In this document: positions 14,546-62,514 of the stretch, one piece after another
Layout: each line of letters begins with the position of its first letter
Numbering within the stretch: the stretch's first letter is position 1
Assembly: GCA_964618315.1 (NCBI GenBank)
Contig: CAZTWQ010000002.1
Location: 22,980-86,979, forward strand
Direction: 5' to 3'
DNA length: 64,000 nt
DNA from: an uncultured Methanosarcinales archaeon
Lineage (GTDB): Archaea > Nanobdellota > Nanobdellia > Woesearchaeales > JACPBV01
Made by a program: the position numbers and the translations under genes
The notes under the pieces: model-generated
Seen by the model: only the letters and a program-made list of their open reading frames with translations
Database searches by the model: none
What the model was told of the DNA's origin: nothing

Positions 14546-14554
14546 CTGTATTTT

Positions 14555-14575
14555 ATGTTTGTTTATAAATCTTAT
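14555..14575 (-). promoter_or_regulatory. hom promoter box (TATA plus conserved flank)
   Basis: On the minus strand ATAAGATTTATAAACAAACAT lies about 10-30 nt upstream of the hom ATG. It matches the asd promoter box at 25537-25557 at 20 of 21 positions. Confidence 0.5.
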
Positions 14576-14813
14576 CCTTAGTTCTTATATTTGATTATTT
14601 TTTAGGTTTTTATTATATCTAGTTTTTATTAGTTATTTTTATCAGTACTTTTAATTGATTTTGTTTATTGGTTAAAAAATAATTAATCCTTGTTTTATTG
14701 AAATTCTTTGATTTTTGATACCTCTTTTTTATCCTTGTTATCGAGGTGTTCTGCCTATCTTCAAGTAGTTACAGAAAAAAGGTTTAAATATAAGTTGTTA
14801 TTTCCGGTAGTTT

Positions 14814-15725
14814 ATGGGAATTTTAGCTAGGGTTACAGGTGCAATTGGTGCAGCTATACATCATAGTGGAGCATCTAATGGAGCAGCAAAGACTATAGAT
14901 GATTTTGCTGTTACTGATGATTTTGATTCTGATTTGGCTGCATTGAATGAATTTGTGTGTTCTGCTGTTTCTGTACTTTATCCCACTACTACATTTCATA
15001 GTTATAGGGGAACTCTTGAAGAATTTCAAACAGATAGTGGTTACAGTTCTTTTGTGGATAATATGACTCATAATCTTTGTATGATGAATCCAAAAAATAG
15101 GTATGAGACAAAGGCTGTTAAATCTGATGCAGGAAAACCAGCAGCAGCTGCAAATGAGGCAAAAGAAGCAGAAGCTGGAGTTACAATCGCAACAACAAAA
15201 GAAGAAGTTCCAAATACAAATGACCAATATAGATTTGTTAATGCTATTGGTGCGTTTGTAGCTCATTATCAAACAGAATCAAGAAATTTATTAGGTGGTG
15301 TATTAGATTTTGCTTATACTATGGCAGCAACAGAAGGAGTTAAGAGTCATACCCTTACTAGTCCGAATGGGAGAGGATTACCTCCAGGTTATAATCCTGA
15401 GAGGATAGGTGGGGTAGAAACTAGGGGCCATTATTCTGGTGATTTTGAGAGGGGGGCCAATTTAATTGTAAACATAGCAGGTGATGATCTTGGTACTCAT
15501 ATTGCTAATTTAATCAATAATGTAATTATTGAAAATGCAAAGGTTAATGTTAGATATACCAATGATCATGAGGTAGCTGATTTTGAGTATTTTAATGATG
15601 ATAAAGCAGAAGCAGTTAGATTAGCAGAACATATTGGCATGGTTGATCAAGTTAATGGCGTATTTAATCAGATTCAAGCACCTTATATGAAAAAGAAGCA
15701 AGCTCCAGCACAACCCCAACCATAA
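14814..15725 (+). CDS. hypothetical protein (Lys-poor, atypical composition)
   Basis: 303-aa ORF with a TATA-like GGTTTAAATATAAG about 30 nt upstream. No family recognised. Confidence 0.55.
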   Translation: MGILARVTGAIGAAIHHSGASNGAAKTIDDFAVTDDFDSDLAALNEFVCSAVSVLYPTTTFHSYRGTLEEFQTDSGYSSFVDNMTHNLCMMNPKNRYETKAVKSDAGKPAAAANEAKEAEAGVTIATTKEEVPNTNDQYRFVNAIGAFVAHYQTESRNLLGGVLDFAYTMAATEGVKSHTLTSPNGRGLPPGYNPERIGGVETRGHYSGDFERGANLIVNIAGDDLGTHIANLINNVIIENAKVNVRYTNDHEVADFEYFNDDKAEAVRLAEHIGMVDQVNGVFNQIQAPYMKKKQAPAQPQP

Positions 15726-15953
15726 AAAAAACTTCTTAGTTTTTACTACCAACATTAGACAAATACCTCGTCGTTAAATCAGTAAACTATATAAACAGGT
15801 AATTAATAATCCAGAATAATTACGTGTTTTGTTTTAGATAAGGCGATTGAAACGGTAAATCAACTCTTAAACAAAAGTGAATCTTATTTCTTAGATTATC
15901 TTATGGAATGTAGTTTTGAGAATAAAAGAATTATAAATGGAGGATGATTGAGA

Positions 15954-17042
15954 ATGGCAGATAAACCAGCAGCAAAACCAGTATATATAGGTGAAGATGG
16001 ACTAACAAACTATAGATTTTCATTTGGACCATGGAATATCCATGAAGGTGCAGATCCATTTGGACCAACAGTCAGACCAACAGTTGAGTTTGCAGATAAA
16101 GTTGCACTTTATAGGGATTTAGGTTATGAAGCGATACAGTTTCACGATGATGATGTTGTGCCTAACGTTAGTGACCGCTCGCATAGGTCAGTTATGCGAA
16201 GGGCAGGGGAAGTTAGAAAACTGATTGATGGCGAAGGATTACAACCAGAATTTGTCGCCCCTAGATTATGGGAAGATGCTAGAACTATTGATGGAGCATA
16301 TACTTCTAATAGTGCAACTGATCGTCAATACGCTAGGATTAGATCAAGAGTTGCTATCGATATAGCTGATAGGCTCGGAACAGACCTGATAGTGCTTTGG
16401 TTAGCAAGAGAAGGAACCTATACTCGAGCAGCAAAAGATCCTAAACGTTCAACAGATTATTTAGTAGGGGCAATCAATGATATGTTAGGGCATAATCCTA
16501 ATATTAGAATTGCAATTGAGCCAAAGCCCAATGAGCCGGCGGGTCAAGCATATATACCTACAATAGGGCATGCTGTAGCTTTGGCTTATATGACTGATGA
16601 TCCTAGTAGGGTAGGCGTAAATCTGGAGAGTGCTCATGTGATATTGGCTAACTTAGACCCTTCAGATGAAATGGGATTTGCAATGGCAGCTAATAAGCTT
16701 TTGACAGTTCACTTAAACGACCAGGAAGGGCCTCAATTTGACCAAGACCTATCATTCGGATCAGCAAATCTACTAAGGGCTTTTCACCAAGTAAGAGTTC
16801 TTGAACAAAATGGTTATGGTAGAAATGGGGAAATTGTAGGCTTAGATGTTAAGGCAATGCGAACTCAAAGGGCAGATGTTGCAACAAAGCATTTAAAGTA
16901 TAGCAGAGAGACGTTTGAAACTCTGCTTCAAAAGGTTAGAACCCTAGATGAAGGTGCTGTGGCTCATCTTACAGAAGCAAGGGATTATGAAGAATTAAAC
17001 CGTTTAATAAAGAACCACATTATGGGTGTAGACACAAGATAA
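15954..17042 (+). CDS. xylose-isomerase-like TIM-barrel enzyme, class I (short, actinobacterial-type) architecture
   Basis: FSFGPWNI...DPFG, FHDDDVVP, LWLAREG, IEPKPNEP, HLNDQ...FDQDL motifs parallel class-I xylose isomerase. The ATG at 15954 lies 8 nt after GGAGGATGA. The track's TTG start at 15948 sits between that site and the ATG. Confidence 0.7.
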   Translation: MADKPAAKPVYIGEDGLTNYRFSFGPWNIHEGADPFGPTVRPTVEFADKVALYRDLGYEAIQFHDDDVVPNVSDRSHRSVMRRAGEVRKLIDGEGLQPEFVAPRLWEDARTIDGAYTSNSATDRQYARIRSRVAIDIADRLGTDLIVLWLAREGTYTRAAKDPKRSTDYLVGAINDMLGHNPNIRIAIEPKPNEPAGQAYIPTIGHAVALAYMTDDPSRVGVNLESAHVILANLDPSDEMGFAMAANKLLTVHLNDQEGPQFDQDLSFGSANLLRAFHQVRVLEQNGYGRNGEIVGLDVKAMRTQRADVATKHLKYSRETFETLLQKVRTLDEGAVAHLTEARDYEELNRLIKNHIMGVDTR

Positions 17043-17096
17043 ATCTTTTTTATTTTTTTATAATTAATAAAAGAAATATTAACGAGGGGATGTAGA

Positions 17097-18530
17097 ATGG
17101 CAGAACAAATGGCACCAGTTGCACAGAAAGCAATAGATATGTATGAAAGAAAAGATTTTTGTACTGGAATTGCAGGGGCAGTACCTTATGAACCAGGCAC
17201 AATATTAACACCTAAATTAAAGGGTGGAAATCAAATTATTTTCAGGGATTATGATTCAAATGAAGATATAATCTACAAAAAGAGTGATGGAACTATCGTT
17301 CAATCAACTATGGGTGCAACAGTCAATCCTTCATTAGCATATTGGCATGCAATGAGGGGTACTGGTCAAGACCCATTTGGAGCTCCGACAATGGTTAGGG
17401 AATGGGCTCAACCAACAGATGAAATGGAAGCTGCAGAATGGACAATGGTAGCAACATTTCAGATTTGTAAAAGACTAGGGCTTGATTATTGTTTTCACGA
17501 TGAAGATATTGCACCCAGAGGTGCATCTTTAACAGAATATAGAAGTAACCTTGACCATATGGCTGAATTTGCTTATGGTTTACAACAACATACTGGTGTT
17601 GGACTTAGATGGAATACATCTAATATGTTTAGTGATCCCAGATTTGCACATGGAGCAGCCACTAACCCAGATGCTACAGTACTTGCACATGCAGGAGCAC
17701 AAGTAAAAAAAATGATTGAAGTAGGAAAGTACTTGGGTGCTAAAAATTATGTATTCTGGGGCGGTAGAGAAGGATATGAAACTTTATTAAACACAGATAT
17801 GGGAAGAGAACAAGCACATTTAGCTAGATTTTTGCATATGGCAGTAGATTACGCAAAAGAAATTGGATTTGATGCACAATTCTTAATAGAACCAAAAGCA
17901 AAAGAGCCAACAAAACACCAATATGATTTTGATGCAGCAACAGTTATAGGATTTTTAACACAGCATGGCCTTAGGGATCATTTTAAACTTAATGTCGAAG
18001 CTAATCATGCAACTTTAGCTACTCATACATTTGAACATGATTTAACTGTTTCTTCTATGAATGGTATGTTGGGGAGTATTGATGCAAATAGGGGAGATAC
18101 ATTACTTGGATGGGATACAGATCAATTTCCATTAGATGTCTATTCAAATGTTATGGCTATGATGGTTGTTCTAGGTCAGGGTGGTCTTGAAAATGGTGGC
18201 TTTCATTTTGATGCAAAGCTAAGAAGAGGATCTACAGATTTAGAAGATATATTTATTGCTCATACTGGAGCAATGGATGCTCTTGCTAGGGGGGCTAGGG
18301 TAGCTGCAAAAATGAGTAGGGATGGGGCGTTATCTGATTTTGTAGCAGAAAGATATGCTTCATTTGATGATGGTATAGGTAAAGCATTTGAAAATGGCGA
18401 GGTTAGTCTAAGAGAACTCGAAGCATTTGCTTTAGCACATGAACCTGAACCAATTAGTGGTAAGCAAGAATTGCTAGAAAATGTAGTTAATCAATACATT
18501 CAAATGGGTACCCATGAATTAGCTCAATAA
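17097..18530 (+). CDS. xylA: xylose isomerase, class II
   Basis: 477 aa with FCFHDEDIAP, VFWGGREGY, LIEPKAKEPTKHQYDFD, NVEANHATLA and GSIDANRGD..LGWDTDQFP motifs. Confidence 0.9.
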   Translation: MAEQMAPVAQKAIDMYERKDFCTGIAGAVPYEPGTILTPKLKGGNQIIFRDYDSNEDIIYKKSDGTIVQSTMGATVNPSLAYWHAMRGTGQDPFGAPTMVREWAQPTDEMEAAEWTMVATFQICKRLGLDYCFHDEDIAPRGASLTEYRSNLDHMAEFAYGLQQHTGVGLRWNTSNMFSDPRFAHGAATNPDATVLAHAGAQVKKMIEVGKYLGAKNYVFWGGREGYETLLNTDMGREQAHLARFLHMAVDYAKEIGFDAQFLIEPKAKEPTKHQYDFDAATVIGFLTQHGLRDHFKLNVEANHATLATHTFEHDLTVSSMNGMLGSIDANRGDTLLGWDTDQFPLDVYSNVMAMMVVLGQGGLENGGFHFDAKLRRGSTDLEDIFIAHTGAMDALARGARVAAKMSRDGALSDFVAERYASFDDGIGKAFENGEVSLRELEAFALAHEPEPISGKQELLENVVNQYIQMGTHELAQ

Positions 18531-18610: not shown

Positions 18611-19768
18611 ATGGCAGCAATAGACGGAATGTTAACAAGATCAAAGCTTGAAGATGAACTAGAAGGAGAACGTCGTTATTCATTTGATTATAAAGACGGC
18701 GCTTCTGTATGGTTGACTGAATTTGGAGCAAGAGCTATAGGCTTGTTCCATTCTTCTGATTCTAATACTATGAATGGTGTTTGGACTCCACCAAACACTA
18801 AAGAAGTTACTCAAAGAATAAGAAGTGCAGGCAGTTATACTGAAGATATCTTGGGTGGAGAAAGAGGGTGGTTTGGGAATGAAGCAGGGTTTCATGATTG
18901 GGATAATTGGAAGGTCCAGACCTCCATGGATCCTGGAAGATTTGAGACTATAAATCATATGATCGATGCTTTTTTATTTCGTAATTCAGGAACATTAGAA
19001 GATTTTCAGACAAATGATAGATATAAATTTGAAGTTGATAGAACTTTCTCAAAGCTTGAAGACCCTTTTTCTGCAACTGATGTAACTTATGTCGGTTTTG
19101 GTCTGCGTTATTCAATTGCTATAACATCTACAGATCTTAGTAGAATCAATAATCCAAAAGTAAATCCCTGGTCTTTGATGACTACTTATTCAGGAACTAA
19201 AGATTATCCAGGAACAGTTATAGCGATAACAAATCCAGGTGCTAAATCAATAACTTATGAAGATGATAAACAGGGTTTGCCTATGGGAGAAAGAGTAAGG
19301 ATAGAAGATGCTGCTGTTTATTTTAGGACTGATAATGTTGGATGTCATCAGATCGCTGTTAAGCCTGAAGACCTAAGATATGTAGATGATCATGCTGTAC
19401 TGATGAAGGTCAACCAAGTTCCAGACGGTTCTGGATTATATGAATTGACAGTCAAAAGAGTTCCAGACACACCATTAGACAGGAATCTTCCTGCAACATG
19501 GCAAGACATCCATGACATACCCCATTATAATCCTGAAGGTGAAAGGGGAACATTGCAGGCATATAATGGACCTGCACCAAGTGATGCAACTCAAAGATTT
19601 ACAGAGATGGAATTTATGCTGGCTCCTTTAGTGCGTACTAGGGGTGGCTATGAAAGAACAGTCCATCTTGAAGTGATACAATATAGGGGAGAATTCGATA
19701 AGATAGTTGGACTAGTGCAAAGGATTGGGCAGATGAGCAATGTACCTTATCTTTTTGCTAGTGAATAA
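18611..19768 (+). CDS. hypothetical protein within the sugar operon
   Basis: 385 aa, same strand, 80-nt gap from xylA. No family recognised. Confidence 0.55.
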   Translation: MAAIDGMLTRSKLEDELEGERRYSFDYKDGASVWLTEFGARAIGLFHSSDSNTMNGVWTPPNTKEVTQRIRSAGSYTEDILGGERGWFGNEAGFHDWDNWKVQTSMDPGRFETINHMIDAFLFRNSGTLEDFQTNDRYKFEVDRTFSKLEDPFSATDVTYVGFGLRYSIAITSTDLSRINNPKVNPWSLMTTYSGTKDYPGTVIAITNPGAKSITYEDDKQGLPMGERVRIEDAAVYFRTDNVGCHQIAVKPEDLRYVDDHAVLMKVNQVPDGSGLYELTVKRVPDTPLDRNLPATWQDIHDIPHYNPEGERGTLQAYNGPAPSDATQRFTEMEFMLAPLVRTRGGYERTVHLEVIQYRGEFDKIVGLVQRIGQMSNVPYLFASE

Positions 19769-19801: not shown

Positions 19802-21010
19802 ATGGCACAACCAAATATAATGTATGATCAGAGAAACACACCAGACAGTCAATTTACAGCTAATAGGGGTGCAGTTAGTGTAGCTATAGAAACTTGTCAG
19901 GAAGGAATTTCAAAAGGGGCTAGAATTCTTACGGTAAATGATAGTGAAGGTGGACTCCAGTATGAAGTGCAGTTGTCACATGGTATGAATATTGGTCCAG
20001 ATTCTTCTTATAAGGGTAAGAGTATATTTTGGGATGCGCCAAATCCTTTAAGAGTTTATTCAGAGGCAGAGATGGACACGGAATTACAAAGAGCAAAAAC
20101 TCATAAAAAAGATGGTGCTGTAATTGGTGGTCTAGGTGGTTGGCTTGATACTTTTAATGCTGGGTTAATATTGTGTGGTCTGGATTGTTGCGGTTCTCCT
20201 GGAGAGGACCCTGTTACTGGAGAATCTTTAACTCTACACTCAAGAATTGGACTTCTTCCAGCTGAAAATGTTACTGTAAGATATCAACAAATTGGTGAAG
20301 CTAGATACCAAGTTGTAATTGAGGGGGATGTTACTCAATATATGGGGGATGTTCCTAGTTACAAACTACATAGAAGGATAACAACAGACGTTGGTGGAAA
20401 TGAAATAGGGGTTGAGGATACAGTTGAAAACCTTACTGATGTTACATTACCACTCGATGCACTATACCATATACAACTTGGTGGAGCTGCACTGGAGAAA
20501 GGTTCTGTATTTAGTACTCCTGCTATTGCGCACCTAGATAGAGATGATGATGCTAAAGCTGGAAGAGCGAATATAAACTCAATGCCTGGAATTGGAGATA
20601 CTAAATATGAACGAGAAAAATTATGGTTCCATATCTTTCCAGAAATTGAAAAGGTAACGTCATTACTTAGAAATCCTGATGCTAGTTTTGGCGTTTATAC
20701 AAGACATGACCAAAGAGAGTTACCCCAATTTTCACAATGGCAACAAAATGGTGGTTGGCAGTTTAAGATCGAAGACCCTGAAAACTATAAAGAAGTGTGG
20801 TATGTGAATGCTCCTGAGCCAGGATTTACCAGATGTCCAAATAGGTCTGTTGAGAGAGAAGAAGGAAGACTTCAATATCTTGGACCAAGAGAGAGAAGAA
20901 CTGTGCACGTTGTAGTTGGAGCATTGGATCAGCAATCGCAAATAATGTCAATTGAAGACATCATTAAACAGCATAAATCTGTTCCAAGAGATGAATTTAT
21001 AGCTGCGTAA
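19802..21010 (+). CDS. hypothetical protein (possibly mutarotase/DUF4432-like fold; weak)
   Basis: 402 aa with a GGAGG Shine-Dalgarno site. The N-terminal pattern GGLQYEVQLSHGMNIGPDSSYKGKSIFW resembles aldose-epimerase-like DUF4432 proteins, from memory only. Confidence 0.5.
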   Translation: MAQPNIMYDQRNTPDSQFTANRGAVSVAIETCQEGISKGARILTVNDSEGGLQYEVQLSHGMNIGPDSSYKGKSIFWDAPNPLRVYSEAEMDTELQRAKTHKKDGAVIGGLGGWLDTFNAGLILCGLDCCGSPGEDPVTGESLTLHSRIGLLPAENVTVRYQQIGEARYQVVIEGDVTQYMGDVPSYKLHRRITTDVGGNEIGVEDTVENLTDVTLPLDALYHIQLGGAALEKGSVFSTPAIAHLDRDDDAKAGRANINSMPGIGDTKYEREKLWFHIFPEIEKVTSLLRNPDASFGVYTRHDQRELPQFSQWQQNGGWQFKIEDPENYKEVWYVNAPEPGFTRCPNRSVEREEGRLQYLGPRERRTVHVVVGALDQQSQIMSIEDIIKQHKSVPRDEFIAA

Positions 21011-21045: not shown

Positions 21046-22680
21046 ATGGCAGAACAAAGAAGATTATCTTTAGGATTAGATTCAAGCACACAAGGCATAA
21101 AAGCTGTTGTTATTGATGTGGATTCTGGGCAGACAGTCTATGAAAATGCCCTTAGTTATGATGAAGATCCCAGATTAGCAAAATATAATGTTGATGGAAG
21201 TATATTCATGCCTTCAAAACTAGGTCTTGCTGAGCAAGATCCAAGAATGTTTGTCGCTTCTTTAGATGCTATTTTTGAAGATATGGGTAGAAGTGAAGAA
21301 TTTGATATGGGTGAAATAAGGGTTATAAATGATTCTGGACAGCAGCATGGTCATGTTTATTTGAATGGGCAATCTAGACAAAAGTTTGCTCAGCTTCAGA
21401 CAGGAGACTCTGCAAGCAGCAACTTAACTACTATCTTAGATGGATGTTTTTCATATCCTGGTGCGCCAATCTGGAAAACAGACAATACTCAAGCTGAGGC
21501 AGATTATCTTAGGCAGGCAGCTGGTGGTAAAGAACAAATGATTCGTCTTACTGGTTCTGATTCTCCATTAAGGTTTACAGCAGCACAAATGATGATGATT
21601 GGAAGATATATGCCAGAAACCATTGCAGATACAGAAACTGTTCAGCTTATCAGTAGTTTTATTCCTGCAATACTTGCTGCAAATACAAGATCTCCTTTGG
21701 ATATTGGGAATGGTGCTGGAACTTCTATTATGGATTATGCGCAGAGAACAAATTCTCAGGTAATGATTGAAGCAGCTGCAAGATATTGTAGAATAGAATC
21801 TTGGGATTTTGCATCAAAGCTTCCTGGTTTAACAGCACCTAATTCTATTGTTGGAATGGCCTCTAAATATCTCCAGCAAAAGTATGGGTTTAGGGCTGAT
21901 TGTATGGTTACTGCTGGATCAGGTGATAATCCTCAACTAAAGGTAATGACTGAAGATGACTTATTAACATTAGGTACGAGTGGAGTTTATATTATTTCTA
22001 CTGATGGCAATACATTTGACATGACAGGGGTTGGAAATGCTATGTATGACGGTCTTGGAAGGCCTTTGTTGTTTAGATGTAGAAGTAACTGTGCTACTGG
22101 TATGGATAGGATCAGGGCAGTTAATGGTTTAGGGCCAAAGGATTACGCTACAGCAGATGATGCAATTGAACAAGAACCTTTTGGAAAATATATCTATATC
22201 TGGCATCCTGATGGAGCAGAAACATTACCTATTTCTCCTATGCTTGAAGAACCTTATGTTGAAGGTTTTGGTTCATCAGGCGGATTAGGACCTGAATATG
22301 CAGGAGTAGTTGATTCTGTAATCGGAGCAATTCGTGCATATTCTGGATCTGATGAATCAGATTCTAAAAAGCCTCTTCTTTTATCTGGAGGTCCATCTAA
22401 TAGTAGGCAAATAAAGTTGAGGGCAAGTGGTATTTTTGGTGGGAGGCCAGTAATCTCAATGGGTGATGTTGGAGCTGCACTTGGTGCAGCTGTTGCAGGT
22501 GCTGATGCTTATTTAAATAGATTAGCAGAAGAACATGATATTGAATTGCTTTGTGGGAATGTATTGCCTAGAAGTGAACCAGTTATAGCTGGTCCAGAAA
22601 TTGTTGCAGCATATAATGGGAAAGGTATGTTTTTAGATAGATTAACAGCAGCTTATGATAAAGTAATTGCTGGAAAATAA
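21046..22680 (+). CDS. FGGY-family carbohydrate kinase, xylulokinase-like (eukaryote-type long form)
   Basis: 544 aa with LGLDSSTQGIKAVVID N-terminal motif, SGQQHGHVY, and LTGSDSPLRFTAAQ. Confidence 0.8.
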   Translation: MAEQRRLSLGLDSSTQGIKAVVIDVDSGQTVYENALSYDEDPRLAKYNVDGSIFMPSKLGLAEQDPRMFVASLDAIFEDMGRSEEFDMGEIRVINDSGQQHGHVYLNGQSRQKFAQLQTGDSASSNLTTILDGCFSYPGAPIWKTDNTQAEADYLRQAAGGKEQMIRLTGSDSPLRFTAAQMMMIGRYMPETIADTETVQLISSFIPAILAANTRSPLDIGNGAGTSIMDYAQRTNSQVMIEAAARYCRIESWDFASKLPGLTAPNSIVGMASKYLQQKYGFRADCMVTAGSGDNPQLKVMTEDDLLTLGTSGVYIISTDGNTFDMTGVGNAMYDGLGRPLLFRCRSNCATGMDRIRAVNGLGPKDYATADDAIEQEPFGKYIYIWHPDGAETLPISPMLEEPYVEGFGSSGGLGPEYAGVVDSVIGAIRAYSGSDESDSKKPLLLSGGPSNSRQIKLRASGIFGGRPVISMGDVGAALGAAVAGADAYLNRLAEEHDIELLCGNVLPRSEPVIAGPEIVAAYNGKGMFLDRLTAAYDKVIAGK

Positions 22681-22706: not shown

Positions 22707-23921
22707 ATGACAGGAAACAAAACAACATTTATGTATGCAGGACATATATGTCTTGATATACTTCCAGGTATTCCAGTTCAACAGTCATTAGACTTAGAAA
22801 AAATAGCAAGTCCTGGAGCACTTGTTCAGGTTATTGAACCAATAATCGGTACTGGTGGGCCTGTTTCTAACTCTGGAATTGCAGCTCATATAATTGGGGG
22901 GCAGATAGGGTATACTGCATTACTTAATGGTAAGATTGGTGACGATGATCTTGGGAAGGTTCTCCAAGCAAAAATAGCAGAAAGAGGATTGGATCCAGGA
23001 GCCATGACTGTGGATGGAACAACTAAAACTTCTTATACTGTAGTAATTGGCTTTGACGATACTAATGGGGGTACAAGAGATAGAGTATTTTTTCATGGCC
23101 CTTTAGCAAATGATACATTTGGATTTGAAGATGTTGCATGGGATAGTGCTGGGGAAGCAGATGGAATTCATTTAGGATACCCTCCATTGATGAGGCTGCT
23201 TTATTCTGATGGTGGAGCTACTCTTAGTAAAATTATGAGGTATGCAAAAGAATTAGGTTTAACAACAAGTCTTGATATGGCAGCTTGTGATCCAAATTCT
23301 GATGCTGGAAAAGCTGATTGGGATTCAATTCTTCGAATGTCTTTACCTAGTGTTGATATGTTTACACCTAGTATAGGTGAGACATTGTATATGACTGATA
23401 GGGCGTTGTTTGATGAACTTGATGAAACAAAAACAGATCTTGTTGATCGTGTAGATGGTAATCAAATTTCTTCTGTTTCTGAAAAATTAAGTGGATATGG
23501 GAATGAAATTCCAATTATTGTTCTTAAAATGGGGCATAGGGGAGTATATATGGTAACAGGTAGTAGAGAAAGCCTTGAAAGAATGGGGAGATTTAAACCT
23601 GAAGATCTTGATGCGTGGGCTAATAGAGAATTGTGGCATACTAGTTATCATGCAGAATTCCCGATGGCAACCGGAGCAGGAGATACAACAATTGCAGGTA
23701 TGCATGTTGCAATGCATATGGGATTATCACCTGAAAGTGTTTTAGAAAGAGGCACACTTTATGGTTGGCAATGTGTTGGTGCTCCTGATGCTCTTGGTGG
23801 TCTAAAACCTTGGAGTGAGTCAACGACAGCAGGATTAACAAAAAATCCTCTTGAAGTTAAAGGGAAAGGGTGGAAAGAAGTTGGAGGGGGATTGTATGCT
23901 GGCCCGAGAAACAAAGGTTAA
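22707..23921 (+). CDS. PfkB/ribokinase-family sugar kinase
   Basis: 404 aa with C-terminal GAGDTTIAG signature of PfkB kinases. Confidence 0.75.
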   Translation: MTGNKTTFMYAGHICLDILPGIPVQQSLDLEKIASPGALVQVIEPIIGTGGPVSNSGIAAHIIGGQIGYTALLNGKIGDDDLGKVLQAKIAERGLDPGAMTVDGTTKTSYTVVIGFDDTNGGTRDRVFFHGPLANDTFGFEDVAWDSAGEADGIHLGYPPLMRLLYSDGGATLSKIMRYAKELGLTTSLDMAACDPNSDAGKADWDSILRMSLPSVDMFTPSIGETLYMTDRALFDELDETKTDLVDRVDGNQISSVSEKLSGYGNEIPIIVLKMGHRGVYMVTGSRESLERMGRFKPEDLDAWANRELWHTSYHAEFPMATGAGDTTIAGMHVAMHMGLSPESVLERGTLYGWQCVGAPDALGGLKPWSESTTAGLTKNPLEVKGKGWKEVGGGLYAGPRNKG

Positions 23922-24059
23922 TTCATTTATTTCCTCAATTTTATATAATTTATATATTTAACCTACACATTTTTAAATAGAACTGTATTTTAGTAGATTA
24001 ATTCTTAGTTATTAGCATAGTTAATAATTAGTTGAAATGATGTTATTGGGTTGAATAAT

Positions 24060-25472
24060 ATGGCTGGAACAATTTTAAGTGTAACAAAAAGTGGAAGCAA
24101 TACCCCTACTGAGAGTCTTCCTGAAGAAATTCGTAATAGAGAAACTCACCAGGTAGATATAGGAGCATCATATTATGCTGGTTCATTAACAATTCCAAGC
24201 CTTAATCAGGCATTTAGCGTATTTGATCCTGCACCTATACTAGAAGAAGAGATTGGATTAGTAGGCGATTCTGGAAAAGGGGGAACAAGTAAAGTTTTTA
24301 GAGGTAGTTATGGTGATAGGCAGGTATGTGCTATAAAAGTCATGGATTGGCGAGCACTTTTAGGGCGTTCACCTGATTATATTGAAGATTATCTGCGTAA
24401 ATTTGGTGGAGAGGGCAGAGATGTTCAAACTATGTTTCGTAGGTGCAGTGATGATCCTAGATTAGCAAGGATAATTCAAGTACATAAATATGGGTCTTAT
24501 ATCATACCTCATATTATTATGGAATTTGTTGATGGCACTGACCTTGATAACATTGTTTTAGATAGGACTATCAGTACAAATTTAACTCCTGGACTTAGCA
24601 GAAGTGATGTAGTGAATAATATCTATCCAAGAGCCCCTGTTTCAACCATGGATGAAGTTCATCAATTGCTTAGGTCTTATATTCAATCTTCAGAAGGATT
24701 AGAACTTCTTCATGAACAGAGTATTATCCATAGAGATATTAAACCAGCAAATATATTAGTCGATAGAAGTGGCAATATTAGGATAACTGATCTAGGTCTT
24801 GTGAAATCCCTGGATACAGAAAGAGTAAGAACAAAAGGTACTATTATAGGAACTCCTGTTTTTATGTCTCCTGAACAGATAAATATGGCTCATAATAGCA
24901 GAGAATTGACTGTGCAAAGTGATACTTATTCATTTGGGGGTACAATGTTTTATACCCTTACAGGGCAATATGCACATTCTTTTTCTGATGCAGATACTTC
25001 AACAACTAAGGCAATGTGCATTGTAGGTAATGTAGCTGGAATTAAAGGATTTGATATATTAAGTGATGAACTTGGAGCAAGATTAGAATATTCATTTGGT
25101 CCTATAAAAGATTGGTGTTTAGAATATGACCCAGTTGATAGGCCTACTACAAAAGCAAGGACTTATGCTATTATTGGAGCTGCTGTAGAATTGGGTGTGG
25201 AACCAGAACATATTAGATCATATTCATATGTAGAGCAGGACGATGTTTCTGAATTAGTAGCAGATGTATATTCTTGGACTGATTCCAGAAGAAAAGAATT
25301 GGTAGTATCAGGCCTTAAGCATGCAGGGCATACAGATGTTATGGATGCATATGAAACAGCTCTTAATCAAACTGCATATTCTGAAGTTGATACAAGCAAG
25401 CTAAAACTTTCTGAAAGATTAACATTAGCTGCTAATGCAGTTATAAATATAATGTCTGGTAGCAATCAATGA
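24060..25472 (+). CDS. Hanks-type Ser/Thr protein kinase with uncharacterised C-terminal domain
   Basis: GKGGTSKVF Gly loop, CAIKVM, HRDIKPANIL, TDLG, and SPE motifs. The first ATG is at 24060; the track starts at a TTG at 24051. Confidence 0.85.
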   Translation: MAGTILSVTKSGSNTPTESLPEEIRNRETHQVDIGASYYAGSLTIPSLNQAFSVFDPAPILEEEIGLVGDSGKGGTSKVFRGSYGDRQVCAIKVMDWRALLGRSPDYIEDYLRKFGGEGRDVQTMFRRCSDDPRLARIIQVHKYGSYIIPHIIMEFVDGTDLDNIVLDRTISTNLTPGLSRSDVVNNIYPRAPVSTMDEVHQLLRSYIQSSEGLELLHEQSIIHRDIKPANILVDRSGNIRITDLGLVKSLDTERVRTKGTIIGTPVFMSPEQINMAHNSRELTVQSDTYSFGGTMFYTLTGQYAHSFSDADTSTTKAMCIVGNVAGIKGFDILSDELGARLEYSFGPIKDWCLEYDPVDRPTTKARTYAIIGAAVELGVEPEHIRSYSYVEQDDVSELVADVYSWTDSRRKELVVSGLKHAGHTDVMDAYETALNQTAYSEVDTSKLKLSERLTLAANAVINIMSGSNQ

Positions 25473-28853: not shown

Positions 28854-29210
28854 TTATCTCGTCAATTCTACATTAGTATATGCTTCCCATGTTGTACCTG
28901 GTGATTGATCAAGATAATAACCTATAGGCGAATTACAAACTTGCTCACCCATAAATAGCCCCAGATGTAATTCAATATCATCGCTTTGTCCAAATCCATG
29001 TTTTACATAATCTGTTAGATATAATAATCTTGGTCTTAGAAGCTCTGGTGCATCTTCAGGTATTTCTGCTACTTTTCCATGTATAATAAAGTTACATACC
29101 TTTGATGGTTTTGTATCTCTACGGATTAAAAGAACATCTGTTCCAGTCGGAAGATGCGCTAATTCATCAATACTTCCAACTTTATTCAATTTAAGATGCG
29201 CAGCATGCAT
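28854..29210 (-). CDS. hypothetical protein (atypical composition)
   Basis: 118-aa ORF, Lys-poor, no family recognised. Confidence 0.4.
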   Translation of the reverse strand: MHAAHLKLNKVGSIDELAHLPTGTDVLLIRRDTKPSKVCNFIIHGKVAEIPEDAPELLRPRLLYLTDYVKHGFGQSDDIELHLGLFMGEQVCNSPIGYYLDQSPGTTWEAYTNVELTR

Positions 29211-33235: not shown

Positions 33236-33253
33236 TTTTAAGGGGTGTATCAG

Positions 33254-34414: not shown

Positions 34415-34416
34415 AA

Positions 34417-35241: not shown

Positions 35242-35298
35242 TCTAGTATTGGACATTAATGTCTAATCTGTCTATTTCTAGTCAATAACTTTATAAAT
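35241..35298 (+). promoter_or_regulatory. arg promoter/operator module 2 (upstream of argD)
   Basis: GTCTAGTATTGGAC-ATTAAT-GTCTAATCTGTC...GTCAATAACTTTATAAAT. The 14-bp box is the exact reverse complement of the box in module 3. Confidence 0.6.
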
Positions 35299-38710: not shown

Positions 38711-38712
38711 AG

Positions 38713-42126: not shown

Positions 42127-42270
42127 TATTATCCCCTCCAAAAATATTAATATTTAATGAAATTAAATGATGGTATTTAAATCTTTCTATCGTCTCTATT
42201 TTAAAGTAGTTAATGGTGGAAAGGTTTATAAATATAAATGAAACTGTAATGAAAAATAAGGGGATAAAAA

Positions 42271-44675: not shown

Positions 44676-44739
44676 GTTACTCATATTAGAGTAAGATTAA
44701 ACCATAATTTTTTAAATAATACCTTTTTCTTTAAATATT

Positions 44740-52986: not shown

Positions 52987-53188
52987 AATTAATAAAAACA
53001 ACGATTTCTTTTTAAAGTTTTCCCTAAAGAGTAGTTAAATAATTAAGGTATTGGGATCTTTACAAACATTTAAACATTTTCATATTGACGATAAATTTGT
53101 GATAAGCTGGTGACAAAAAAGTCAGTTTTAATAAAACAAAAGTTTTTTATATGCATATCTCTAATTTAGATAAAAAGAGTGTAAAATA

Positions 53189-54454: not shown

Positions 54455-54880
54455 ATGGTCGATATATACTTAGCAGCTACAGATTCACTTGATATAGTTG
54501 GTTCTGAAGATGATGGATCACATATTGATCTGATAGGAAGTTGTTTAGAACAGGCTATATTGAGTATGATAGGTGCTAAAAGGTTTGCTGATTGCGATAC
54601 AGGCAGAACTTATTCATATTCCAGACGTGTTTCTGGTTCTCTTGATGGAAGAGACGTAACTGTCATTCTTGCACTTTTTCGAGAGGGTGAGAAAGCACAT
54701 GTTGATGTTTTTACAGATCTAGAAGAACTTGCTTTACCTGATTGTCCTGATGATCTAGGTCTTGATAATGCAATTAGTACAGGATATGGAATATATTTGG
54801 ATTTTGTTAATCAATTAGAAGCTAAGAGAAGAACTCAGGATAATCTTGATACATACTTCCCTCATGCCCATGGTTATTAG
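54455..54880 (+). CDS. hypothetical acidic protein (atypical composition)
   Basis: 141-aa ORF, no family recognised. Confidence 0.4.
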   Translation: MVDIYLAATDSLDIVGSEDDGSHIDLIGSCLEQAILSMIGAKRFADCDTGRTYSYSRRVSGSLDGRDVTVILALFREGEKAHVDVFTDLEELALPDCPDDLGLDNAISTGYGIYLDFVNQLEAKRRTQDNLDTYFPHAHGY

Positions 54881-54958: not shown

Positions 54959-55714
54959 ATGCCTAAACAAGATAAATTAATAATCCTTGACCTGGATGGT
55001 ACTGTCTGGGATGTTGGTGGTTTTAATATTGAAGCCTCTAAAGCTGTTTTTGATGGACACAATCGTGAAGGAGACATCAGAAATGCTAATTCCCATGGAA
55101 GCACCATGTATCTAGTCAATAAGGCATTGATGAGACTTGTAGTTGATGCACCAACTTATGGGCATATAACTGGTGCAATGGGGAGATGGATAAACAGAGG
55201 CAAAGAATTACTAGATGATGACCCCAATTCATTAGAGCCTTTCAGACTTTATTCAGGTGTTACGGATTTACTAAGTTTACTTGATAAAACTGCTCATCTA
55301 GGTATAGTATCAGGTAATCATCGTGACTTAGCTCAACCCATCCTAGAGTATTTTAGTCTAGAAGACATTTTTACACCTGAATCACAAATATATCAGGATG
55401 GTTTTATAGGCAATGGCAGGATAAGTTCAATAGCAGCACGTGCTAGCGGCATAATTATCTGCATGATGAGACAAAGACAAAAAGGCATCAAATTCAATGA
55501 AGTATTTTATGTAGGCGATGCACCAACAGACATTGAATCAGCTAATAAGGCAGACAATGTAGTATCCGAGCTTTCAGGAATCAGAGTTAGGGGAGTTGCC
55601 GTTGCCCATACCCACACGATGAATCAACTTTTAGCTCAAAACCCAGCTTATTGTTTTGAAAACCTCAAGGATCATGAACATGTCGCTAATCAAATACTTT
55701 ATGGAACTCAGTAG
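54959..55714 (+). CDS. HAD-superfamily hydrolase/phosphatase
   Basis: Motif I LILDLDGTVWD and motif IV YVGDAPTDIESA. Confidence 0.7.
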   Translation: MPKQDKLIILDLDGTVWDVGGFNIEASKAVFDGHNREGDIRNANSHGSTMYLVNKALMRLVVDAPTYGHITGAMGRWINRGKELLDDDPNSLEPFRLYSGVTDLLSLLDKTAHLGIVSGNHRDLAQPILEYFSLEDIFTPESQIYQDGFIGNGRISSIAARASGIIICMMRQRQKGIKFNEVFYVGDAPTDIESANKADNVVSELSGIRVRGVAVAHTHTMNQLLAQNPAYCFENLKDHEHVANQILYGTQ

Positions 55715-56815: not shown

Positions 56816-57610
56816 ATGAAAATAATAAAGATTCCTTCATCTCAAGGGGGTCTAGGAAAAGCAGATGGTTCAGAGCTAGCCCCAGATAAGATTATTGAGC
56901 AGACTAAAGAATTATTCATGTCTGAAGATAAAGTTCTGCCTGTCTTTGATGTTGATTCAGTTGATGTCATAAGTTCAAATATAGAAGAGACAAATAAGAA
57001 CATATTCAACAAAGCAAAAGAGGCACTATCAAATAATACAAAGCCATTGTTTTTAGGCGGTGACCATTCTGTAACATTTCCTATTGTCAAAGCCTTTTCA
57101 GAAACTTATCCTTCTAACCCAGGAATCATAATATTTGATGCACATCCTGATTGTGAAAATGATTTTACACCACCTACGCAGGAAGACCTGGTCAATGGGC
57201 TGGTCAATCAGAATATTATAAAAAAAGAGAATATTATCTTAGTAGGTATCAGAAATTGGGATAAGAATGAGATTGAGTTCCTTTCTAAGAATAATATAAA
57301 GTATTTCTCCATGAAAGAGATCATGGCTAATGGTATACATGATGTTTCTGATTCTTTTATGAGCGTCGCAAAAGATTTTTCTGACCTTTACATAAGCATT
57401 GACATAGATGTGCTTGACCCTGCATTTGCTCCAGGTACTGGTTATATCGAACCAGGGGGACTAAGTACAAGAGAATTGCTATTTTTCTTACAAAGGCTGA
57501 AAAGACTGAAGAATCTTCGTGCCTATGATCTTGTTGAGATAAATCCTGCTAAAGATATCAATGATATGACTTCTAAAGTAGGGGCTAAGATATTGGTTGA
57601 GTTGTGTTAG
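56816..57610 (+). CDS. arginase/agmatinase-family ureohydrolase
   Basis: GGDHSVT, DAHPD, and SIDIDVLDPAFAPGTG Mn-binding motifs. Confidence 0.85.
   Translation: MKIIKIPSSQGGLGKADGSELAPDKIIEQTKELFMSEDKVLPVFDVDSVDVISSNIEETNKNIFNKAKEALSNNTKPLFLGGDHSVTFPIVKAFSETYPSNPGIIIFDAHPDCENDFTPPTQEDLVNGLVNQNIIKKENIILVGIRNWDKNEIEFLSKNNIKYFSMKEIMANGIHDVSDSFMSVAKDFSDLYISIDIDVLDPAFAPGTGYIEPGGLSTRELLFFLQRLKRLKNLRAYDLVEINPAKDINDMTSKVGAKILVELC
57560..57610 (+). repeat. ureohydrolase 3' end, copy A of a diverged direct repeat
   Basis: The last 14 codons plus stop are re-found at 58336-58380. Confidence 0.8.
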
Positions 57611-57651
57611 ATTACAAAATTATTTAAATAAAAGCAAATATTTATATATTA

Positions 57652-57984
57652 ATGAATGATAATGAATATATAATAAAATATTTAAGGAAATATAAAAAAG
57701 AAGATATCTTAATAGATAAACACGCTGAATTAAGGGCTAAACAAAGGGACCTCGATTTAGAAGAAGTATATTATAATTTGTTAAACCCTTCCAAAAGATT
57801 ATCATTCACAAATAAACTTGAAGAAGAAAGCGATGGTTTAGAAAAATTTAAATGTTATTTTGGCTATAGTAAAACACAATGTCAAATTTACATAATAAAA
57901 TTTAGTGACAAATTAATCATCAAAACAATAATAAAATTAAATAAAAGATGGCAGAAAAGGGCTGAAAAATATGGAAAAATTTAA
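57652..57984 (+). CDS. DUF4258-like small protein (putative toxin)
   Basis: 110 aa with the HAELRAKQRDL pattern typical of DUF4258 (from memory). It overlaps the next ORF. Confidence 0.4.
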   Translation: MNDNEYIIKYLRKYKKEDILIDKHAELRAKQRDLDLEEVYYNLLNPSKRLSFTNKLEEESDGLEKFKCYFGYSKTQCQIYIIKFSDKLIIKTIIKLNKRWQKRAEKYGKI

Positions 57985-58327
57985 TATAGATTATGATAAC
58001 GAATCAGATGATTTGTTTCTTTATGCTAAAGAGAAAAGTAAGGGTTCAGTTGAAATTGGAGACTTAATATTGGATTTTGATAGGGGTGGAAAATTAGTGG
58101 GTATAGAGATGTTGAATGCAACTAATTTTTTATGTGATTGTGTGGCAGATAAAGATAAAATTTCTAAAGAATTCTTATCTAAGCTAGTGAAATGTGAAAT
58201 CGAAGTTAAACAAAAAAATAATTTCTTATTTATAAAAGTTAATTTAATCGGTAAGGATGTGATTGTTCCTTGTCCAATAAATGCTCCAATTGTTACTGAA
58301 ACAAGCCCTGCATTGGCTTATACTTAG
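57971..58327 (+). CDS. DUF2283-like small protein (putative antitoxin partner)
   Basis: 118 aa with YDNESDDLFLY...GKLVGIEML, the pattern of DUF2283. Confidence 0.45.
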   Translation: MEKFNIDYDNESDDLFLYAKEKSKGSVEIGDLILDFDRGGKLVGIEMLNATNFLCDCVADKDKISKEFLSKLVKCEIEVKQKNNFLFIKVNLIGKDVIVPCPINAPIVTETSPALAYT

Positions 58328-58330
58328 AGA

Positions 58331-58380
58331 AATGTATGACTTCTAAAGTAGGAGCTAAAATATTAGTTGAGTTATGTTGA
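58331..58380 (+). repeat. orphan copy B of the ureohydrolase 3' end
   Basis: It still reads MTSKVGAKILVELC-stop. It differs from copy A by four third-position G-to-A changes and a TAG-to-TGA stop change. Confidence 0.8.
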
Positions 58381-61032: not shown

Positions 61033-61205
61033 TTAAGTTCATTTTCTAAAAAATAAGATTATACAAAAGAAAAAATTTATTTTTTTAAGTATATTGACTA
61101 TAATTTTTCTAGACTTTCAAAACCTTTATAAACTTAAAAATACTACCCAAATACAATAGCTTTTGAGTAAAAACATAAATAACAAATATCAGTGAGGGGA
61201 TAAAC

Positions 61206-61487
61206 ATGGCAGAAGACAATGCAATTTTTATTGGCGGGAAGCCGTTTATGAACTATGTGACTGCTGTTGTAATGCAGTTTACGACAAAGAACGCACCAGA
61301 AGTGATTGTAAAAGCAAGAGGGAAGTTTATTTCTAGAGCAGTGGATGTTGCAGAAGTAGCTTCAAAAAGATTTTTGACTGGGCAAGTTGCAGTTAAGAAC
61401 ATAAATATAAATTCTGAAGAGTTTCAGAACAAAGAAGGCAGAGATGTCAGGGTTTCTACAATGGAGATCCTTATAGGAAAACTTTAG
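61206..61487 (+). CDS. albA: Alba DNA/RNA-binding chromatin protein
   Basis: 93 aa with IFIGGKPFMNYV...VKARGKFISRAVDVAE, typical of Alba. Confidence 0.9.
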   Translation: MAEDNAIFIGGKPFMNYVTAVVMQFTTKNAPEVIVKARGKFISRAVDVAEVASKRFLTGQVAVKNININSEEFQNKEGRDVRVSTMEILIGKL

Positions 61488-61594
61488 TTTTTCTTTATTA
61501 TTTTTCTTTTTTATTAAACAAGTTTCTAAACTTTAAAGCGAAGCTTTAAATTTACTTAAGTTTTATATAGTAGTTTTGAATATGGTTGTTTATT

Positions 61595-61683
61595 GGGCCT
61601 ATAGCATAGCCTGGATAGTGCAATTGGCTTCGGATAGAAATAGAAGCTACCAGTTGACCGGGGTTCGAATCCTCGTAGGCCCA
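61595..61683 (+). tRNA. tRNA-Arg (anticodon UCG) with 15-nt intron after position 37
   Basis: Hand-folded cloverleaf. Acceptor GGGCCTA/TAGGCCC; D arm GCAT..GTGC; anticodon stem ATTGG/CCAGT with loop CT-TCG-G. Intron at 61634-61648; T arm CGGGG-TTCGAAT-CCTCG. A TATA-like GTTTTATATAG lies about 28 nt upstream. Confidence 0.8.
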
Positions 61684-62133
61684 GTTTATTCTCTTTCAAA
61701 GAAATGATTCATACTTAAGTTTAACAGCAGTTCCATAAGTTTGTAACAAGATTATTGCAACTAGAACTTTTATTAGGCAATAATGTTCTATTTCCAAAAT
61801 ATTTAACTAATTGTGGTGGGTAATACAATAAAAACAACAACTTGTGGTGGTAAGATTTCTGGAACAAAAAAAAGATTTATTGAATTTATCAAAAAAGAAT
61901 ATTTCAAAGAACACGAAGAATACCCATAATTCTAGATTCATTATCTTTTCTACAGCATTCTTACAATAATTATTTCCTAGATAAAAAGATAAGTTTATTT
62001 CAACTTTTGAAAAAGACCAATAAACTGGATATATCAGTTTTCTTTGGAAATGACTATGATTTGTTATCCCAAACAGTGTCCAAAAGATAATAGTCCTGTA
62101 TGTTTATAAGCTAATAAATATTCTTCTTTATTT

Positions 62134-62514
62134 ATGACAGAAGAACCAGAATCAGAAGGTTGGGAATCTGTTCCATGGCACCCTCCAAGATTTGTAAATG
62201 GGAGAGTTACAGATGATATTTGCATAGTACATATCCTATACATGATGTCTATGGTACCCCATCATAGAACTGGATCTCTCGTTAAGGGGGATGATAGAGA
62301 CCTAGACAGCACCCTAGTTGAACATAGAGATAGGTTGATTCAAGAACATGGTATTGATATGGGTCTATATGTCGAATTAGGAACAAAATTCATGTATACC
62401 TATAAGGATCAACAAGAGAAGTTTGAAGCAGGCATGAAATTATATGATATATTAACTCCCCTATACACTGGACTTCATGAATCAGGATTATCCCATACCC
62501 AAATATTCGGATAA
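62134..62514 (+). CDS. hypothetical acidic protein (atypical composition)
   Basis: 126-aa ORF about 450 bp downstream of the tRNA. No family recognised. Confidence 0.4.
   Translation: MTEEPESEGWESVPWHPPRFVNGRVTDDICIVHILYMMSMVPHHRTGSLVKGDDRDLDSTLVEHRDRLIQEHGIDMGLYVELGTKFMYTYKDQQEKFEAGMKLYDILTPLYTGLHESGLSHTQIFG

Follow-up and report, generated by a model that had tools for sequence, protein, structure and literature searches.

The 64-kb stretch of DNA analysed here (the window) comes from the chromosome of a marine Woesearchaeota/Nanoarchaeota archaeon (DPANN), and two sets of genes with different protein compositions are interleaved along it. A Lys-rich core, which includes genes for arginine and riboflavin biosynthesis and argS, is interrupted by Lys-poor blocks, the largest of which holds eight genes and encodes two xylose-isomerase-like proteins and two sugar kinases (Table 1). 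An earlier note on this DNA, made from the sequence alone, had described nine such blocks. We compared all 61 open reading frames (ORFs) of at least 80 aa in the window, 19 of them Lys-poor (atypical) and 42 others, and all nine blocks were recovered both by per-ORF statistics and by unsupervised clustering. The ratio K/(K+R) was 0.27-0.56 in the 19 atypical ORFs and 0.61-0.96 in the other 42, two ranges that do not overlap. A Gaussian mixture fitted in five dimensions, namely K/(K+R), GC content at the first and second codon positions (GC1 and GC2), and the summed shares of F, Y, M, I, N and K (FYMINK) and of G, A, R and P (GARP), favoured two components (Bayesian information criterion -871 vs. 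-658), and its minor cluster consisted of exactly the 19 ORFs, in nine blocks, that the note had picked out. The hand counts in that note were also exact, both for ArgB (41 Lys and 5 Arg in 274 aa) and for the class-I xylose-isomerase-like ORF (Table 1). Together the atypical ORFs take up 19.9 kb of the 57.9 kb of coding sequence (~1/3), with none of them located in the first 14.5 kb.

Relative to the core, atypical proteins contain less Lys (4.1% vs. 11.3%) and Ile (5.6% vs. 9.7%) and more Arg (5.9% vs. 2.8%), with Ala, Gly, Asp, Thr, Pro, His and Gln all raised as well. The blocks had also been described as higher in GC, and this holds at the first two codon positions only, with GC1 at ~0.53 compared with 0.42 in the other ORFs and GC2 at ~0.40 compared with 0.31 (Mann-Whitney p = 7e-9 and 4e-9, respectively). 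At the third position (GC3), however, atypical genes are lower than the core (0.20 vs. 0.27, p = 8e-7), and the gap in whole-ORF GC is modest (0.35-0.41 vs. 0.23-0.38). Roughly, the atypical proteins resemble in composition those of a genome of ~50% GC (about E. coli-like, with Lys 4% and Arg 6%), written in the AT-rich codons of the host. Their isoelectric points lie mostly at 4.7-5.8, with 3 of the 19 outside this range and extremes of 4.3 and 9.1. Since the sum of Asp and Glu is nearly equal in the two classes (13.8% atypical vs. 12.4% core), this lower isoelectric point is due to less Lys and not to added acidic residues.

The earlier note had raised the possibility that the donor of these genes had an acidic (halophile-like) proteome, and low isoelectric points with few Lys residues would fit a salt-in donor of this kind. 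However, salt-in halophile proteins contain roughly 18-20% Asp plus Glu, well apart from the core-like value found here, and Arg is raised in the atypical class and not lowered. Furthermore, silent sites are host-like and the nearest homologs found are from bacteria of the Planctomycetes-Verrucomicrobia-Chlamydiae (PVC) group and of Armatimonadota type, as set out below. The suggestion therefore does not hold up, and we regard a halophile-like donor as highly improbable.

At silent sites the lower GC of the atypical class was consistent across all measures, with fourfold-site GC at 0.136 vs. 0.196 in the core, and with twofold sites at 0.156 vs. 0.228 for C/(C+T) and 0.257 vs. 0.338 for G/(A+G). 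This difference was kept in all four next-base contexts, which rules out a codon-context artefact in which next codons starting with G would lower GC3. The preferred codon is identical in both classes for every amino acid, AGA and AGG make up 87% of Arg codons in each class, and synonymous first-position choices (AGA for Arg, TTA for Leu) are host-like in the atypical genes. Atypical GC3 values all fall within 0.15-0.28, with none above 0.29. Likewise, a TATA box at about -30 and a GGAGG motif at -12 to -15 are present in both classes, in agreement with the earlier observation that they have TATA boxes and Shine-Dalgarno sites in common. A recent origin of these genes from a GC-rich donor was rejected, given that their silent sites match the host fully. 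Across 13 Woesearchaeota loci with a host core GC3 of 0.24-0.54, GC3 of Lys-poor ORFs tracked that of the host (slope 0.96-1.07, intercept -0.04 to -0.08, r = 0.88-0.91). A slope of ~1 indicates that silent sites are set by the resident genome, and argues against a common AT-rich donor pool.

The Lys-rich class also includes accessory genes of toxin/defence type. These are two paralogous Fic genes, 33% identical to each other (1467-2345 and 55767-56786), a PIN gene (26675-27073), a DUF2283 pair (57652-58327) and a HEPN/nucleotidyltransferase pair (positions 3198-4141 of locus L087). Apart from the Fic genes, they have a GC3 of ~0.19-0.21, as low as that of the atypical genes, so that low GC3 marks accessory genes in general and Lys-poverty marks foreign origin.

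Two compositions on one contig could also be produced by an assembly or binning chimera of two organisms, which the earlier note had listed as a possibility. However, the core/atypical junctions recur, in the same gene order, in at least five samples: over 10-21 kb, the window is 99.98-100% identical to five contigs that derive from ENA and JGI samples, carry MEGAHIT-, SPAdes- and JGI-style names and cross many of these junctions. In the indexed assembly collection, 45 blocks contain the exact ArgB sequence, and for each of ten proteins of both classes there are records on 11-21 contigs of up to 140,892 bp. An apparent 100-nt difference in locus L002 was found to be an N-run scaffold gap inside a repeat. 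Gene-by-gene interleaving at nine sites is likewise incompatible with a mis-join, as are the common codon preferences and promoters and the overlaps between stop codons. Two such overlaps had been reported and both were present, the PadR-like gene being convergent with ribB over 4 nt (45342-45345) and the radical-SAM gene convergent with the upstream core gene over 7 nt (48179-48185). The probability of a chimera is negligible.

RibD and ArgS match Woesearchaeota/Nanoarchaeota metagenome-assembled genomes (MAGs) at 57-79% identity, several of these being from the Mariana and Yap trenches and from other marine samples, and after the archaeal MAGs the next RibD matches are clostridial and other bacterial RibD at ~49% identity. 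For ArgS, nothing was found between 79% and 100% identity, which implies that the host species sits at the tip of a long unsampled branch, with time along it for gained genes to age. In four relatives (L014, L016, L083 and L086) the core backbone is contiguous or nearly so, in the order argF-J-B-D-C-G, ribD, ribB, argH, x, argS, CNNM, arginase-family gene, thrC, apgM and alba. Using BLASTP, none of the 19 atypical ORFs had a match in 14 related loci (E < 1e-5), or in L083 and L086 (E < 1e-3). The view that the blocks were inserted one by one between housekeeping operons is thus borne out by flanking core genes that are contiguous in relatives, and because the atypical genes are absent from all relatives they are not native. 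We also observed that region 25598-61487 is unusually complete in biosynthesis for a DPANN archaeon, with aspartokinase, hom, asd, thrC, argF/J/B/D/C/G/H, ribD/ribB and an arginase/agmatinase-family gene, and this completeness bears on host dependence in the lineage.

The same gaps hold different cargo in different relatives. Between argS and CNNM, where the window has the 601-aa ORF, L083 (78% ArgS identity) carries another block of four genes, comprising UxaC, two genes without a Pfam match and a 484-aa mannitol-dehydrogenase-family gene, while in L086, L014 and L016 this gap is empty. In the argG-ribD gap the window has five genes, L007 and L008 have one or two different ones, and L083 and L086 have none. 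In addition, L010 has one Lys-poor gene between ribD and ribB, and L020 has one after ribB. This cargo is again Lys-poor with high GC1 and low GC3, is non-homologous to that of the window and mostly has no Pfam match, and atypical genes of different relatives are not homologous to each other. Interleaving also extends beyond the window on both sides. On the left, six more Lys-poor ORFs without a Pfam match occur within 10 kb (L087 1-7482), two of which are adjacent paralogs with 41% identity, and on the right the series DUF4416-proC-proA-proB is interrupted by two ORFs without a Pfam match and two Gfo/Idh/MocA genes.

Table 1. Features of the window in order of position, with codon-position GC, K/(K+R) and family scores where available.
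Feature	Coordinates	Strand	Details
303-aa ORF	14814..15725	+	First gene of 10.7-kb block; K/(K+R) 0.54, GC1 0.53, GC3 0.16
Xylose-isomerase-like TIM barrel, class-I type	15948..17042	+	PF01261 E = 1e-18; K 13, R 31
Class II xylose isomerase	17097..18530	+	TIGR02630 584.8 bits vs. cut-off 533.25 (passed); GC3 0.18
385-aa Lys-poor ORF	18611..19768	+	K/(K+R) 0.35
DUF4432, aldose-1-epimerase-like	19802..21010	+	PF14486 E = 1e-44; K/(K+R) 0.40
FGGY-family sugar kinase, xylulokinase-like	21046..22680	+	PF00370 E = 4e-10; K/(K+R) 0.39, GC3 0.19
PfkB-family sugar kinase	22707..23921	+	PF00294 E = 4e-12; K/(K+R) 0.56, GC3 0.19
Ser/Thr protein kinase	24051..25472	+	Last gene of 10.7-kb block; PF00069 E = 1e-28; K/(K+R) 0.37
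118-aa Lys-poor ORF	28854..29210	-	Between rimK-like and purA genes; K/(K+R) 0.55, GC1 0.54, GC3 0.15
Core argF-J-B-D-C-G	32378..38710	+	Lys-rich, K/(K+R) 0.79-0.96; same-order orthologs in relatives, 53-86% identity
Left copy of perfect 118-nt direct repeat	39055..39172		Last 108 nt of flavodoxin-like gene plus 10 nt
187-aa Lys-poor ORF	39273..39836	+	K/(K+R) 0.39, GC3 0.18; own TATA box at -31
Right copy of 118-nt repeat	39881..39998		Non-functional remnant of flavodoxin-like gene 3' end
420-aa Lys-poor ORF	40026..41288	-	First of three genes in block 40026-43476
268-aa Lys-poor ORF	41335..42141	-	K/(K+R) 0.45, GC3 0.19; GGAGG at -13
Mannitol-dehydrogenase-family oxidoreductase	42271..43476	+	PF01232 and PF08125; below NCBIfam cut-offs
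Core ribD-ribB	43602..45345	+	61-77% identity to 14 Woesearchaeota/Nanoarchaeota MAGs
342-aa winged-helix (PadR-like) protein	45342..46370	-	PF03551 E = 2e-6, 28.0 bits vs. cut-off 27; K/(K+R) 0.34
Radical-SAM-domain protein	48179..49426	-	PF04055 E = 1e-7; K/(K+R) 0.38, GC3 0.18
Core argS	49527..51182	+	Many Woesearchaeota/Nanoarchaeota homologs at 60-79% identity
601-aa ORF (596 aa per gene finders)	51196..53001	-	In argS-CNNM gene gap
141-aa acidic Lys-poor ORF	54455..54880	+	K/(K+R) 0.27, pI 4.3, GC3 0.16; no Pfam match
HAD-family hydrolase	54959..55714	+	PF00702 and PF13419; K/(K+R) 0.43
Lys-rich two-ORF cassette (57652-58327, DUF2283)	57565..58378	+	Bracketed by repeat of arginase-family gene 3' end
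126-aa Lys-poor ORF	62134..62514	+	K/(K+R) 0.45; no Pfam match; 450 nt downstream of tRNA gene

The largest block (14814-25472, 10.7 kb) opens with a 303-aa ORF that has a TATA box, TTTAAATA, at -31 and no match in Pfam, NCBIfam or PDB sequences. The class-I xylose-isomerase-like protein falls below its family cut-off (TIGR02631, 200.7 bits vs. 447) and is 33-35% identical to Thermus and actinobacterial XylA, and the FGGY kinase is likewise below cut-off (TIGR01312, 112 bits vs. 380). The DUF4432 protein has 25-28% identity to plasmid-borne bacterial genes of the aldose 1-epimerase family, and for this and the class-I-like protein together the best matches, at 25-35%, are to bacterial genes on plasmids. 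The 385-aa ORF had no match in Pfam, NCBIfam, PADLOC or PDB and no relative in a scan of viral contigs, and across the atypical ORFs the PADLOC defence models returned only generic kinase matches, to the Ser/Thr kinase at the end of this block. A 21-nt promoter motif, ATGTTTGTTTATAAAyCTTAT, is mirrored at 14555-14575 and 25537-25557 (z = 5.8), one copy lying upstream of hom (minus strand) and the other upstream of asd (plus strand), at both edges of the block. This suggests that a divergent hom/asd promoter region was the site at which the block inserted. The inverted match was also considered as the end of an element, and was rejected as it is the shared hom/asd promoter motif.

Many of the remaining atypical ORFs are not assignable to families, and 9 of the 19 have no Pfam family. 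No match was found for the 118-aa ORF in Pfam or PADLOC, for the 268-aa ORF in Pfam, PADLOC or NCBIfam, or for the 420-aa ORF in Pfam, NCBIfam, PADLOC or PDB, and a single-sequence AlphaFold2 model of the last was unusable (predicted local distance difference test score 34). The 187-aa ORF had no Pfam or PADLOC match, and the 601-aa ORF had none in PDB, Pfam or PADLOC. A PDB sequence search with four familyless ORFs (303, 385, 420 and 601 aa) gave nothing below E = 0.07. Using the IMG/VR viral and JGI metagenome collections, scans with four atypical proteins, which detect close relatives only, returned none, whether for the 187-aa ORF in metagenome and viral contigs, for the 420-aa ORF in metagenome contigs, or for the 385-aa ORF and the radical-SAM protein in viral contigs. 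When the 601-aa ORF was searched with phmmer against 1.84 billion representative proteins, it retrieved itself alone.

The earlier note had also proposed that the blocks form a functionally coherent but dispersed sugar and polyol regulon. A sugar or polyol role is conceivable for 7 of the 10 atypical ORFs with a Pfam match, these being the two xylose-isomerase-like TIM barrels, the DUF4432/aldose-epimerase-like protein, the FGGY and PfkB kinases, the mannitol-dehydrogenase-family protein and the HAD protein, the last of which is placed here tentatively, from its family. Sugar-type genes also occur outside the window set, in the UxaC and mannitol-dehydrogenase-family genes of the L083 gap and the two Gfo/Idh/MocA genes beyond the window. 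Repeat searches of the window found no motif common to atypical promoters, with the only operator-like repeat belonging to the arg genes, and without a shared operator among the atypical genes the idea of a regulon was not sustained. The arg repeat contains the palindrome TAGACATTAATGTCTA, after which comes a TTTATAAAT box, and precedes argF, argD and argH (32250-32310, 35238-35298 and 46397-46457). An exact copy occurs at the argH start in relative L009, and the repeat is probably an arginine-regulon operator. The TAGACATTAATGTCTA copy at 46409 is also situated 20-45 nt upstream of the divergent, atypical PadR-like gene.

To identify sources of the atypical genes, homologs in large databases were sought for three of them, namely the class II xylose isomerase, the mannitol-dehydrogenase-family gene and the 601-aa ORF. 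For the xylose isomerase, best matches were 63-68% identical, and the few that are named belong to Kiritimatiellia, Lentisphaerae and Victivallales, all PVC bacteria. Two contigs carrying such homologs have a GC of 0.56-0.58 and a GC3 of 0.61-0.71, compared with a GC3 of 0.18 for the window gene, the amino-acid composition of which nevertheless sits in the middle of the homolog distribution. The mannitol-dehydrogenase-family protein, compared with 5.8 billion clusters, found its own 90% cluster and then only matches at or below 38% identity, the nearest of which contain 1-2% Lys and 8-9% Arg and are in some cases labelled Armatimonadota. Here K/(K+R) is ~0.17 in the nearest homologs, 0.35 in the window protein and ~0.85 in the host core. 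Judged by similarity to database sequences, the xylose isomerase is therefore of bacterial type with an affinity to PVC bacteria, and the mannitol-dehydrogenase-family gene has its nearest homologs in GC-rich genomes and likewise a bacterial affinity, so that the homologs of both genes lie outside the host lineage. A donor contig shared by several genes was considered and rejected, since the PfkB, HAD and protein kinase genes found beside a PVC xylose isomerase are not specifically related to those of the window.

These compositions could in principle have been selected in the host, with native genes kept Lys-poor whatever their origin, for example through avoidance of lysine-directed modification or through residence in another cellular or host compartment. 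Replacement sites do resist very strong AT pressure (fourfold-site GC 0.14), homolog-less ORFs match the recognisable enzymes in composition, and lineage-specific substitutions in the xylose isomerase include K>R twice, M>R and N>R, with no AT bias. However, the genes are missing from all relatives and so are not native, and their composition is that of ordinary proteins from ~50% GC genomes and of their own bacterial homologs, which requires no special selection. Furthermore, the functions are those of ordinary cytoplasmic enzymes, and no signal peptides were seen in the atypical translations when these were inspected by eye. Selection of native genes for Lys-poverty is thus very unlikely.

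Two insertion scars were found in the window. The 118-nt direct repeat around the 187-aa ORF is 100% identical between copies (z = 67), and in a tblastn search its intergenic right copy encodes 35 aa that are 100% identical to the C-terminus of the flavodoxin-like protein. The repeat is also present in other assemblies of this species that span the site. No other atypical gene has an insertion scar, and the perfect repeat implies that this ORF reached its present site recently. The second scar surrounds the Lys-rich DUF2283 cassette, where 57565-57608 and 58335-58378 share 44 nt at 91%, extending to ~90 nt (z = 21.5), and the remnant of the arginase-family 3' end encodes 14/14 identical amino acids. 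At each of the four differences within the 44 nt, all at synonymous third positions, a G of the gene is replaced by an A in the remnant. This could mean that the remnant came from a related functional allele and not from decay in place. For the other eight Lys-poor blocks there were no flanking repeats above shuffled controls, and a search of all intergenic regions for gene fragments returned the same two remnants only. No integrase or transposase Pfam family is present among the window genes. Insertion at tRNA genes was likewise not observed, as the 126-aa ORF alone lies near a tRNA, at 450 nt and without a repeat. This tRNA (61595-61683, 89 nt; Rfam 49.9 bits) is the only one in the window, was missed by ARAGORN and probably contains an intron.

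A long-hairpin element of ~165 nt was also observed in two copies that are 77-82% identical (13064-13229 and 63252-63417), each directly preceding the TATA box of a minus-strand gene for a small membrane protein (12536-13018 and 62536-63192). It has a minimum free energy of -61.8 kcal/mol (minus strand z = -6.7, plus strand z = -6.4), with paired changes between copies in the outer stem, and no Rfam match at E <= 1. This element could be MITE-like (miniature inverted-repeat) or a structured RNA.

The scars bear on another explanation, in which small, Lys-poor and already AT-recoded cassettes circulate among Woesearchaeota or unsampled viruses and plasmids and insert downstream of core genes with duplication of the target 3' end, their composition being that of the pool. 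This would account for a perfect repeat around an ORF with a GC3 of 0.18, for a second scar of like design around a two-ORF cassette, and for the differing cargo in the same gaps of relatives. It would also fit the many familyless ORFs, one of them without any homolog, and a 110-aa Lys-poor ORF in L006 that has a GC3 of 0.22 in a host with a GC3 of ~0.5. However, GC3 of Lys-poor ORFs follows that of each host with a slope of ~1, atypical genes of the relatives are mutually non-homologous, and the viral and metagenome scans gave no relatives of the four proteins queried. Likewise, repeat scars are limited to 1 of the 9 Lys-poor blocks, integrases and transposases are missing from the window, and xylose isomerase and sugar kinases are atypical as cargo of mobile elements. 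Such a cassette pool is unlikely. A more specific form, with a distinct unsampled pool of promoter-bearing cassettes among marine Woesearchaeota that insert without their own recombinase, through a 44-118 nt 3'-end duplication, and whose composition is actively maintained, is decidedly unlikely. In that form the Lys-poor class, with its long homolog-less ORFs, would not be a remainder of ordinary transfers from bacteria, and what is maintained would be a non-equilibrium state that combines a GC3 of ~0.2 with E. coli-like amino-acid usage.

The explanation we favour, and consider fairly probable, is old and repeated gene transfer from GC-richer bacteria and unsampled sources, in which silent sites have equilibrated with the host and protein composition lags behind. 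Here the Lys/Ile/Asn-rich core, with its genes for aspartate-family, arginine, riboflavin and threonine biosynthesis, argS, apgM and alba, would be long resident. Along the long branch towards this species, foreign genes would have been inserted repeatedly, one at a time or in small operons, in tolerated gaps between transcription units and often antiparallel to their neighbours. Some donors would be GC-richer bacteria, as the PVC-like xylose isomerase and the GC-rich homologs of the mannitol-dehydrogenase-family gene suggest, and others would be unsampled. Strongly AT-biased mutation in the host would then have driven all silent positions, including synonymous first positions, to host equilibrium, and archaeal TATA and GGAGG signals may have evolved in, or been captured by, the transferred genes. 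Meanwhile, purifying selection would have kept replacement sites, and hence amino-acid composition, near the donor state. A GC3 slightly below that of the core could be due to accessory, probably weakly expressed genes lacking the mild preference of core genes for C- or G-ending codons.

Several observations weigh against this explanation. There is no gradient of age, as all 19 genes are equilibrated at silent sites and K/(K+R) does not correlate with GC3 (rho = -0.12, p = 0.62). In the xylose isomerase, Lys content is under the homolog median, and AT bias is absent from 42 lineage-specific substitutions at conserved columns, of which 19 increase codon GC and 17 decrease it, although this test is weak as it covers conserved columns only. 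The recently arrived 187-aa ORF already has a GC3 of 0.18, which implies that it came most immediately from an AT-rich source, whether elsewhere in this genome, in a related genome or in a mobile element. Donor taxonomy is established for two genes only, and the proportion of familyless ORFs (9 of 19), together with the absence of a homolog for the exhaustively searched 601-aa ORF, is odd if donors were ordinary marine bacteria. The pattern is real, and is probably a largely ordinary outcome of old gene transfer.

No description of this compositional pattern or locus in Woesearchaeota was found in the literature. The window is a very clean natural case of a DPANN archaeon whose acquired and ancestral genes can be told apart by protein composition alone and no longer by codon usage. 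None of the 19 genes would be picked up by transfer screens that rely on GC or codon usage, and all are found with K/(K+R) or GC1/GC2. With silent sites fully equilibrated and protein composition unchanged, the window could also serve as a calibration case for how fast silent sites adapt under strong AT pressure, compared with replacement sites. Lineage-specific cargo at about one-third of coding sequence here, in a supposedly reduced genome, including a bona fide bacterial-type xylose isomerase, sugar kinases and dehydrogenases, bears on metabolic dependence of marine Woesearchaeota, and the two repeat-flanked cassettes hint at a route by which single genes enter these genomes.

Compared with known systems, the window agrees in part with the amelioration model of Lawrence and Ochman, in which transferred genes reportedly approach host composition at third codon positions first, then at first and then at second positions. 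As in that model, GC3 and synonymous first positions are host-like, with GC1 and GC2 still ~0.10 above the core. However, there is no spread of ages, with all 19 genes fully equilibrated at silent sites, atypical GC3 falls below the core and does not approach it from above, replacement changes in the xylose isomerase have no AT bias, and for many members that are homolog-less no donor can be named. Gene transfer from bacteria has been reported for DPANN archaea generally, and the window resembles such cases in having bacterial-type metabolic genes in a small archaeal genome, with a xylose isomerase closest to PVC bacteria. Unlike the usual cases, this set is separable by protein composition alone, makes up ~1/3 of coding sequence and includes homolog-less ORFs.

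Some site-specific integrative elements bring along a duplicate of the target gene's 3' end, classically that of a tRNA gene. Two window cassettes are similarly flanked by direct repeats of the 3' end of the upstream gene, but the targets here are protein-coding, the inserts are 0.7-0.8 kb with no recognisable recombinase, and eight Lys-poor blocks are repeat-free. Prokaryotic pangenomes also contain integration hotspots, or flexible islands, between conserved core genes, and the window matches these in its syntenic core flanks and in the differing cargo of the argS-CNNM, argG-ribD and CNNM-arginase-family gaps. It differs in that insertions are mostly single genes without an integrase or transposase, that the comparison is made at genus or family divergence (60-79% amino-acid identity) and not between strains, and that the host is a DPANN archaeon. 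On present evidence this is not a new kind of system: the locus does not behave as an integrase- or tRNA-type genomic island or as a halophile-derived gene set, and behaves instead as a series of integration hotspots, or flexible islands, populated by ageing transferred genes.

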